A stretch of DNA of 64,000 bases from Sphingomonas sp. (GTDB lineage: Bacteria > Pseudomonadota > Alphaproteobacteria > Sphingomonadales > Sphingomonadaceae): the NCBI RefSeq assembly GCF_041659925.1, contig NZ_JBAZXI010000012.1. The stretch is one strand, 5' to 3'. Of the stretch, positions 17,221-18,147 are shown in pieces. Made by a program: the position numbers and the translations under genes. Numbering within the stretch: the stretch's first letter is position 1; each line of letters opens with the position of its first letter. Under the pieces are notes generated by a model. It had not been told where the DNA came from and searched no databases. It was given only the letters and a program-made list of their open reading frames with translations.

Positions 17221-18147
17221 ATGGCAATGAGCGGTAGAGCCGAGGCACTGCACCTCGAGCCCCGCAATGCTCGGACAACGACCAGCGCGCCGCCGGTCGC
17301 TGCCGCGCTGGCCGAGACCGACCGGAGCCGCTCCCTCGCTGCCACTGCGCGTCTGCTCAACGCCCGGCCTGCGCTGGTCGCACAGCGCGCGCTTGCCGAA
17401 TCGCTCGCCCGACCACACCGCCCGATAGCGCCAAGCGCGACCGCCAGTTCATCCACCAGACCCGTCCAATTGATGAACGGCCAGCCACCCGACGACGATG
17501 AATGGGGCCCGTTTCAAGGCGCTGACGCGCAGCACGGCGCGGGCAACGGCGTGCAGGCCAACCAACCCGTCGCGAATATCATCGGTGAAGACGAATGGGG
17601 CCCGTTCCAGGGCGGTGGCAATCCGCCACCGACCATAGAGGCCGCCGACGAGAACTGGGCGAACTTCGGCCCGCACGACGGCGCACCCGCTCAGGAGCAG
17701 GATCCGCATGCCGGCCATGGCCTTGCTGTCGCGATCGGGGAGCATGCCAGCGCCAACGGGCCGATGTACACCACCGATCTGTTCAACTGCATCGCCCTCG
17801 TCGCCTTTGATCCGCAGACGCCACTGGCTTGCCTCTACCATTGGAATACCGGGCTCGGCGCGTTCGAGATGGCATATGATGGCGAAGACGATGAAGGCGA
17901 AGATCGTTACAGACTGGTGCCGAGCCCCGACGGCATCGAAGCCGCGAAAGCCGTCGTCGATGCCGGCGCGCCGGGCGCTGCGGTGTACCGTGCGGTGCTC
18001 GGTCGTTCCTGGGGTGATGCCGAACTCGCGCCCAGGCGCGCGGAATTCGTCGCGGCGCTCGAACAGGTCTTGCCCGGCATCACGATCTTCGACACGCCTC
18101 ACGGCAGCGCGCGATGGGTAGCGCCCAATCTCATCGGCTATGGCTAA
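17221..18147 (+). CDS. Putative effector: eCIS-type leader, acidic W-G-P-F repeats, CheD/CNF-like deamidase domain
   Basis: AVAIGEH..TTDLFNCIALVAFDP..CLYH matches CheD Cys/Asp-Pro/His spacing. Start uncertain (17221 or 17227). Confidence 0.65.
   Translation: MAMSGRAEALHLEPRNARTTTSAPPVAAALAETDRSRSLAATARLLNARPALVAQRALAESLARPHRPIAPSATASSSTRPVQLMNGQPPDDDEWGPFQGADAQHGAGNGVQANQPVANIIGEDEWGPFQGGGNPPPTIEAADENWANFGPHDGAPAQEQDPHAGHGLAVAIGEHASANGPMYTTDLFNCIALVAFDPQTPLACLYHWNTGLGAFEMAYDGEDDEGEDRYRLVPSPDGIEAAKAVVDAGAPGAAVYRAVLGRSWGDAELAPRRAEFVAALEQVLPGITIFDTPHGSARWVAPNLIGYG

Follow-up and report, generated by a model that had tools for sequence, protein, structure and literature searches.

A rare CheD/NTAN1-fold protein of Sphingomonas sp. 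is a candidate deamidating cargo of an extracellular contractile injection system

The DNA analysed here is a 64,000-nucleotide stretch (the window) of Sphingomonas sp. contig NZ_JBAZXI010000012.1 (assembly GCF_041659925.1), and its subject is a gene of the plus strand at 17221-18147. The open reading frame (ORF) listing gives it a 308-aa product, laid out as a leader, a linker with repeats and a domain with a CheD-like fold. A longer ORF opening at TTG 17104 is also available; homologues start at MSG..., which makes the ATG at 17227 the probable true start (P0001, 306 aa). The leader has a core at residues 39-64 (17335-17412; LAAT.RLLNARPALVAQR.L....L.R), with invariant columns from L39 to R64 in the alignment of close homologues, and a second element, PVQLMNGQPP, at residues 81-90 (17461-17490), in which Q83, M85, N86, Q88 and P89 are invariant or nearly so. 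The linker (17491-17670) contains the repeats DDDEWGPFQG (17491-17520), GEDEWGPFQG (17584-17613) and DENWANFG (17647-17670). AlphaFold, Foldseek and hhalign place a putative cysteine amidohydrolase (deamidase) domain with a CheD/NTAN1 fold at residues 163-308 (17707-18144). Its predicted nucleophile is Cys190 (TGC, 17788-17790), its predicted general base His207 (CAT, 17839-17841), 17 residues further on (C+17), and the residue predicted to orient that histidine is Thr184 (ACC, 17770-17772), six residues before the cysteine (C-6). Scans with Pfam, NCBIfam, PHROGs and PADLOC gave no match for the protein, a Pfam hmmscan taken to E<=1 returned no family, CheD and DUF4157 included, and a promoter and terminator scan found nothing above chance.

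The fold of the protein was predicted with AlphaFold. The full-length model had a mean predicted local distance difference test score (pLDDT) of 48, with residues 1-183 below 50 and predicted to be disordered. The first-pass annotation had called the ~165 N-terminal residues low-complexity; ~160 residues are indeed predicted to be disordered, but the region is not merely low-complexity, as it holds the conserved leader and the repeat motifs. Foldseek returned only noise for the full-length model (NTAN1 at E 0.87), and a model of residues 155-308 alone (154 aa; pLDDT 87.6, predicted template modelling score 0.82) was used instead. Against the PDB, the first-ranked match of this model was CheD of T. 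maritima (2f9z_C; E 1.3e-4, prob 1.00, template modelling (TM) score 0.50, 20% identity over 148 columns). Human NTAN1 was second best through several entries (E 3.5e-4, for 6a0e, to 2e-3; prob 1.00; TMq up to 0.56), with the lowest root-mean-square deviation (rmsd), 3.7 A. YfiH/DUF152 matched weakly (E ~0.1) and CNF1/CNFy not significantly (E 0.7-0.9, TMq ~0.34). A sequence search of the family profile against the PDB (hmmsearch) found no match even at E 10. Profile comparison by hhalign, with 23 domains of the family against 7 CheD proteins from alphaproteobacterial genomes, gave Prob 73.8%, P 2.9e-5 and a score of 37.0 across 122 columns; the Thr, Cys and His positions line up, the cysteine and the histidine falling on the catalytic Cys and His of CheD; 40 column-shuffled CheD profiles reached at most a score of 18.6 and a probability of 1.3%.

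In the domain model, Cys36 (=Cys190) opens a strand at 37-42 and His53 (=His207) lies within a strand at 49-54; the two strands are consecutive elements, which we read as a predicted hairpin. NTAN1 and CheD share a CNF1/YfiH-like fold, with the triads Cys75/His92/Ser69 in NTAN1 and Cys27/His44/Thr21 in CheD, and NTAN1 mutants in the triad lose activity (PMC7022378). The offsets C-6 and C+17 are the same in both triads and in T184/C190/H207. The sequence around the nucleophile reads T-T-D-L-F-N-C-I-A-L-V-A-F-D-P-(8)-H in the 308-aa protein and T-T-(T)-L-G-S-C-V-A-x-C-x-(Y/R)-D-P-(8)-H in the seven CheD proteins, where this stretch closes with GGMNH. Both thus have Asp, Pro and His at C+7, C+8 and C+17, respectively, and the D-P pair is common to the 308-aa protein and its close relatives. 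The two groups differ immediately before the nucleophile, where the family has NC and CheD has GSC, and after the histidine, where H-[WYF]-[ND]-T stands in place of H-F-[LM]-L-P. The 308-aa protein also differs from CheD in its 160-aa secretion-type leader, and its relatives in their fusion to DUF4157. [quoted passage not shown] The Cys and His codons at 17788 and 17839 and the CheD-like spacings of +7 and +17, all pointed out in the first-pass annotation, were borne out by reading the codons and comparing the seven CheD proteins. Of the CheD/CNF1 fold proposed there, the CheD half stands and the nearest relatives are CheD and NTAN1 rather than CNF1 or BLF1. With CNF1, CNFy, BLF1 and Pnf the domain shares the superfamily and a Cys-His mechanism. 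It is much smaller than CNF1 and CNFy, and the triad position filled by Thr/Ser is occupied in CNF1 by a backbone carbonyl (PMC7022378).

The domain belongs to a new and very rare family without a Pfam or NCBIfam model. About 11 close homologues (47-62% identity) all come from Sphingomonas-type genomes or metagenomes, and a profile of the C-terminal domain, run against 1.84 billion representative proteins, brought up only 28 with E<=1e-3. Ten of these were looked up by name, and all were metagenomic 'hypothetical proteins', one of them from Candidatus Aminicenantes. In the genus, 150 other genomes were searched for the domain and none had it. In family proteins, which are 245-482 aa long, it lies at or near the C-terminus, behind N-terminal parts that are unrelated or variable. 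Thr184, Asn189, Cys190, His207, Thr210, Gly261, Trp264 and Ala297 are invariant in 18 relatives at 21-61% identity; together with the offsets matching those of CheD, this indicates that the Cys/His pattern is not due to chance. The gene is under purifying selection, as seen in codon comparison of the C-terminal domain with the homologue at locus L001 (68 identical codons, 42 synonymous and 35 non-synonymous differences), and the reading frame is intact across all family members. Widening the search with a narrower alignment and a genome scan yielded close relatives only, plus one doubtful metagenomic 173-aa protein (L020:738-1259; ...YTSGLFNCIAIVAYN...CHLNT) that has a Cys-to-His spacing of +15 and no leader, and that is perhaps distantly related to the domain without being a cargo. 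A further homologue search contributed P0036 alone.

The N-terminus of the 308-aa protein is hydrophilic and has no hydrophobic core and, read from the sequence, is therefore not a Sec or Tat signal. Its leader resembles those of other proteins linked to extracellular contractile injection systems (eCIS). A hidden Markov model (HMM) made from the leaders of this family alone matched the N-terminus of a PF13699 protein (L034) in G159, an eCIS-positive genome of the genus (30.0 bits, E 7.3e-7), and C5:14462-15289 (L053:2463-3290) of the same genome as the 308-aa protein (E 2.9e-6). The C-terminal part of the latter matches EndoU weakly (PF14436, E 8e-5, just under the family cut-off), and this protein is likely another distant eCIS cargo. 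PVQLMNGQPP corresponds to the VQR/IQR boundary motif of DUF4157-type cargo. A P-V-(I/V)-Q-R element also occurs in the C5 and C9 proteins and in a 691-aa protein encoded inside the eCIS cluster of this contig (58383-60458, minus strand; no Pfam match; leader LTQLAGVLNAGPTVRRL...PVIQR), which is presumed to be a resident cargo of that system. The leader of the 308-aa protein is similar to that of the 691-aa protein at the level of motifs only. A short motif, L..L...LN(A/G).P.V followed by V/I-Q-R, opens several further proteins, among them the DUF4157 protein C9:55371-56657, most 'NRTGLP-type' DUF4157 proteins of eCIS-positive genomes, a DUF4157 (eCIS_core)-Ntox15 protein encoded two genes from the homologue in L003, and the proteins of 420 and 375 aa encoded directly upstream of the homologues in L001 and L002 (L001:6573-7835, L002:6708-7835; no Pfam match; leader LVQLSTALNAAPSVA...PVQR). 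The cargo-type leader on these upstream neighbours suggests that cargo-type genes cluster together away from the eCIS. The C9 protein (L005:1324-2610) is the only PF13699 protein of the genome, lies on a contig other than the eCIS contig, and is made up of a leader, DUF4157 and, at the C-terminus, ~250 unannotated residues. PF13699 proteins of the genus fall into a class scoring ~110 bits, found in eight genomes with no tape-measure-positive genome among them, and the 'NRTGLP' class at ~45 bits, found in 7 of 12 tape-measure-positive genomes; most of these proteins start with the L..L...LN..P.VQR leader.

The contig also carries a complete-looking eCIS cluster on the minus strand, from 52298 to the end of the window at 64000 and on to C12:122944 (L007). 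Within the window, Pfam identified a DUF4280/PAAR-like protein (52298-52690), an AAA+ ATPase (52773-54209) and a 1431-aa tape measure (CIS_TMP; 54149-58444). Beyond the window follow a VgrG-like spike, CIS_tube, two gp19 tubes, a sheath and a Pvc16_N cap. The cluster also encodes DUF5908 and large proteins of baseplate size, and one 1207-aa protein of the cluster has an Rv2525c-like glycoside-hydrolase-like domain. The link between the family and such systems is most direct in three distant members, P0012, P0022 and P0035, in which PF13699 (eCIS_core/DUF4157; E 1e-8, 6e-33 and 9e-11, respectively) precedes the domain. DUF4157 is found in 36% of eCIS toxins versus 0.06% of the remaining proteins (PMC11297309); its odds ratio for eCIS is 2614, and it usually sits N-terminal to the toxin domain (PMC8213781). 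The layout published for eCIS cargo opens with a disordered N-terminal sequence that serves loading and is specific to the system, may continue with DUF4157, and closes with a C-terminal effector that varies; the AAA+ ATPase is required for loading (bioRxiv 10.64898/2026.05.27.728243). The layout of the 308-aa protein fits this cargo architecture. It shares a disordered leader, a linker and a variable C-terminal enzyme domain with the eCIS-associated toxins AlgoCIS Cgo1/Cgo2 and EAT14, its genome encodes an eCIS with an AAA+ loader, and distant members of its family carry DUF4157. An eCIS tape measure was present in all three searchable family-bearing genomes, this one and two others, compared to 12 of 150 others of the genus; we treat this co-occurrence as supportive only, because related genomes are not independent. 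Pnf, a CNF-like deamidase delivered by a Photorhabdus eCIS, provides a precedent for an eCIS-delivered deamidase. It is named as a cargo of the Photorhabdus virulence cassette in bioRxiv 10.64898/2026.05.27.728243. Among the toxin functions that keyword searches turned up in PMC11297309, PMC8213781 and this preprint, the effector domain described here is absent.

Taken together, the CheD-like fold and triad, a leader like those of eCIS toxins and an eCIS 34 kb away make an injected deamidating effector, rather than a chemotaxis enzyme, the most likely function. We infer, at slightly better than even confidence, that the 308-aa protein is an orphan eCIS cargo acting as a protein Gln/Asn deamidase. 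The leader (residues ~1-90, with the core LLNARPALVAQR and PVQLM) would serve as the system-specific loading sequence, allowing the eCIS 34 kb downstream to feed the protein into its tube lumen by means of its AAA+ ATPase, and contraction of the particle on a target cell would deliver it. There, His207, oriented by Thr184, would deprotonate Cys190 for attack on the side-chain amide of a Gln, or an Asn, of a target protein, converting Gln/Asn to Glu/Asp. The DUF4157 fusions, a leader common to DUF4157 and EndoU-like proteins and an eCIS on the same contig agree with the first-pass annotation in seeing here a delivered, toxin-like protein instead of a chemotaxis protein. Its proposal of a protein-deamidating effector is supported, and the delivery route can now be specified as a candidate, the eCIS.

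Several observations weigh against this reading. Pfam's CheD model does not match the 308-aa protein, the Foldseek rmsd of the domain to CheD is 8 A, and the hhalign probability against CheD is only ~74%, below the usual confidence level of 90-95%. Unlike the eCIS-associated toxins named above, the protein has no DUF4157, and the Pfam scan found none in it or its immediate neighbours. Its gene is also separated from the cluster by 34 kb and ~21 genes on the same contig (18147 to 52298), and the homologue in G061 lies ~500 kb from the eCIS; for 88% of known eCIS toxins, the distance to the operon is no more than ten genes (PMC11297309). A leader HMM derived from foreign DUF4157 proteins found the 691-aa protein (E 1.9e-4) and did not score the 308-aa protein (E >2), which points to a second leader subtype, bridged by L034. 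The link of the leader to DUF4157 cargo runs through one bridging protein and a short motif. A composite leader motif gave 4 matches against 0.2 expected, with a pattern drawn up post hoc, so that it is not primary evidence.

Of the alternatives, a delivered effector that uses the same fold for other chemistry is unlikely. The chemistry might be transglutamination, amide hydrolysis at N-terminal Asn/Gln residues of target N-degrons, peptide cleavage or hydrolysis of a small-molecule amide. CNF/DNT-type toxins include transglutaminases. EAT14 combines DUF4157 with a transglutaminase-like toxin (PMC11297309). NTAN1 (PDB 6A0E), whose Ser/Cys/His triad has the same C-6 and C+17 spacing, matches the domain as well as CheD does (TMq 0.56 vs 0.50), and the PDB matches include YfiH/YlmD entries labelled 'hypothetical protein' or 'peptidoglycan editing factor', one YlmD being complexed with inosine. 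However, the C-terminal region that NTAN1 has in addition, which caps the active site and reads the N-terminal Asn (PMC7022378), is missing from the 308-aa protein. The domain ends ~100 residues past His207 and covers ~0.3 of the 305-aa NTAN1 by Foldseek TMt. NTAN1 differs further in being eukaryotic and cytosolic, not secreted cargo, and in sharing only ~10% identity with the domain. The YfiH matches are weak, and YfiH coordinates a zinc ion at its active site (PMC7022378). The Thr/Cys/His triad predicted here is of the deamidase type.

The surroundings of the gene bear on a second alternative, in which the protein is a toxin that uses another export route, or acts inside its producer, for example together with the restriction-type genes beside it, and in which the resemblance of the leader is coincidental or ancestral. 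The gene sits in a strain-specific island at 15692-19481, which besides this gene contains those for a molybdopterin oxidoreductase and an Mrr restriction enzyme and a 116-aa ORF. In G209, ~70 bp separate the HNH gene (window 14783-15691) from the gene at 19480-19929 that comes next, so that the island is missing there, as is the TonB-dependent receptor gene (20047-22674); in G203, unrelated genes take the place of the island. The G+C content at third codon positions (GC3) is 0.74 for the gene, 0.69 for the upstream ORF and 0.74 for Mrr, compared to roughly 0.8-0.9 for most genes of the contig. Distance from the eCIS, the strain-specific island with its GC3 of 0.74 and the Mrr and HNH genes alongside all speak for this alternative, and DUF4157 sometimes occurs in type VI secretion system (T6SS) effectors (PMC11297309). 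On the other side, PADLOC found no match, the gene has different neighbours in other genomes, there is no Sec or Tat signal, and the DUF4157 fusions and the co-occurrence with eCIS favour an eCIS; a T6SS was rejected as the delivery machine, with no VipB/T6SS sheath found in the genome. We consider this alternative improbable.

Three ORFs of this or related loci were considered as immunity or partner genes and rejected. The divergent upstream ORF (16632-16982, minus strand; 116 aa as called, 148 aa as listed; no Pfam domain) belongs to a family of >260 unannotated members of ~112-125 aa from several phyla, which does not track the family of the 308-aa protein and is absent from its other loci. 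The gene at 19480-19929 (plus strand; 149- or 151-aa product without a Pfam match) adjoins homologues in L003 and L018 and, in related genomes, keeps its place beside an M16 peptidase gene; the family-bearing genomes G061 and G062 lack it, and five genomes without the family have it. An 81-aa ORF downstream of the homologues in L001 and L002 is absent at the locus described here. With no neighbour conserved as a partner, no immunity gene is evident, and many validated eCIS toxins likewise have none (PMC8213781). This suggests that the substrate is absent from the producer or that, as for many eCIS toxins, no immunity is needed.

A divergent housekeeping enzyme of the CheD type, deamidating the cell's own chemoreceptors or other proteins of its own, is very unlikely. 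CheD is the best structural match, and the genome has four methyl-accepting chemotaxis protein (MCP) genes, all on other contigs, while a CheD profile search of the whole genome found no CheD. These points would suit such an enzyme. Nevertheless, Pfam CheD is silent, and no che, CheC or MCP gene was found near the gene or in the loci L001-L004, L009 and L017-L019; the absence of che genes noted in the first-pass annotation thus holds at this locus, and no relative's locus examined is a chemotaxis operon. To our knowledge, neither a 160-aa disordered leader nor a DUF4157 fusion has been described for CheD. A family present in 0 of 150 other genomes of the genus and in 28 representatives worldwide also does not fit a housekeeping role. 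Least probable of all is an inert domain, used for binding or left in decay, with its Cys and His kept for structural reasons: the extreme rarity of the family would suit it, but the positions invariant down to 21-30% identity are the three of the triad and their neighbours, and the synonymous to non-synonymous ratio and the intact frame of all members indicate selection.

The linker repeats follow an acidic-[WF]-x-x-F motif ([DE][DE]WxxF-type) that 12 of 23 family members, some of them with quite different leaders, have upstream of the domain, compared to a mean of 0.53 members and a maximum of 4 in 1000 composition-preserving shuffles. The motif takes the forms DEWGPF and ENWANF in the 308-aa protein and DDWADF, DDFADF, DFADFADF and DDWAHF in relatives. 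Of 29 other DUF4157 proteins in the genus, just 2 have it, with a single instance each, which suggests that it belongs with the catalytic domain and not with eCIS cargo in general. The repeats are probably short linear motifs that would dock the enzyme onto a partner. They resemble ligands of the gamma-ear/GAE domain (acidic-aromatic-G-[PDE]-aromatic) or of the AP-2 alpha-ear (WxxF, FxDxF), which is a resemblance only; published GAE/gamma-ear ligands include DFGGF, FGxLV and WNSF (PMC13581114). It is a doubtful idea that the linker mimics ear ligands of clathrin adaptors, and that the eCIS-injected effector is eukaryote-directed, binding to the appendages of AP-1, GGA or AP-2 and deamidating a trafficking factor there. 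If true, an environmental Sphingomonas-type bacterium would be attacking the clathrin machinery of protists, fungi or plants with a deamidase.

In a literature search, a 'CheD-like deamidase' appeared as a toxin candidate in one preprint only, in passing. As a deamidating cargo of an eCIS, the family described here would extend the CheD/NTAN1 branch of cysteine deamidases into injected effectors. It would also mean that genes for eCIS cargo can lie at a distance from those of the machine and be recognisable by the similarity of the leader; current predictors lean on operon proximity and would probably miss such orphan cargo genes. With a 145-aa domain, an obvious predicted triad and a co-varying linear motif, the family may offer a tractable route to a new deamidation target and to eCIS loading signals.

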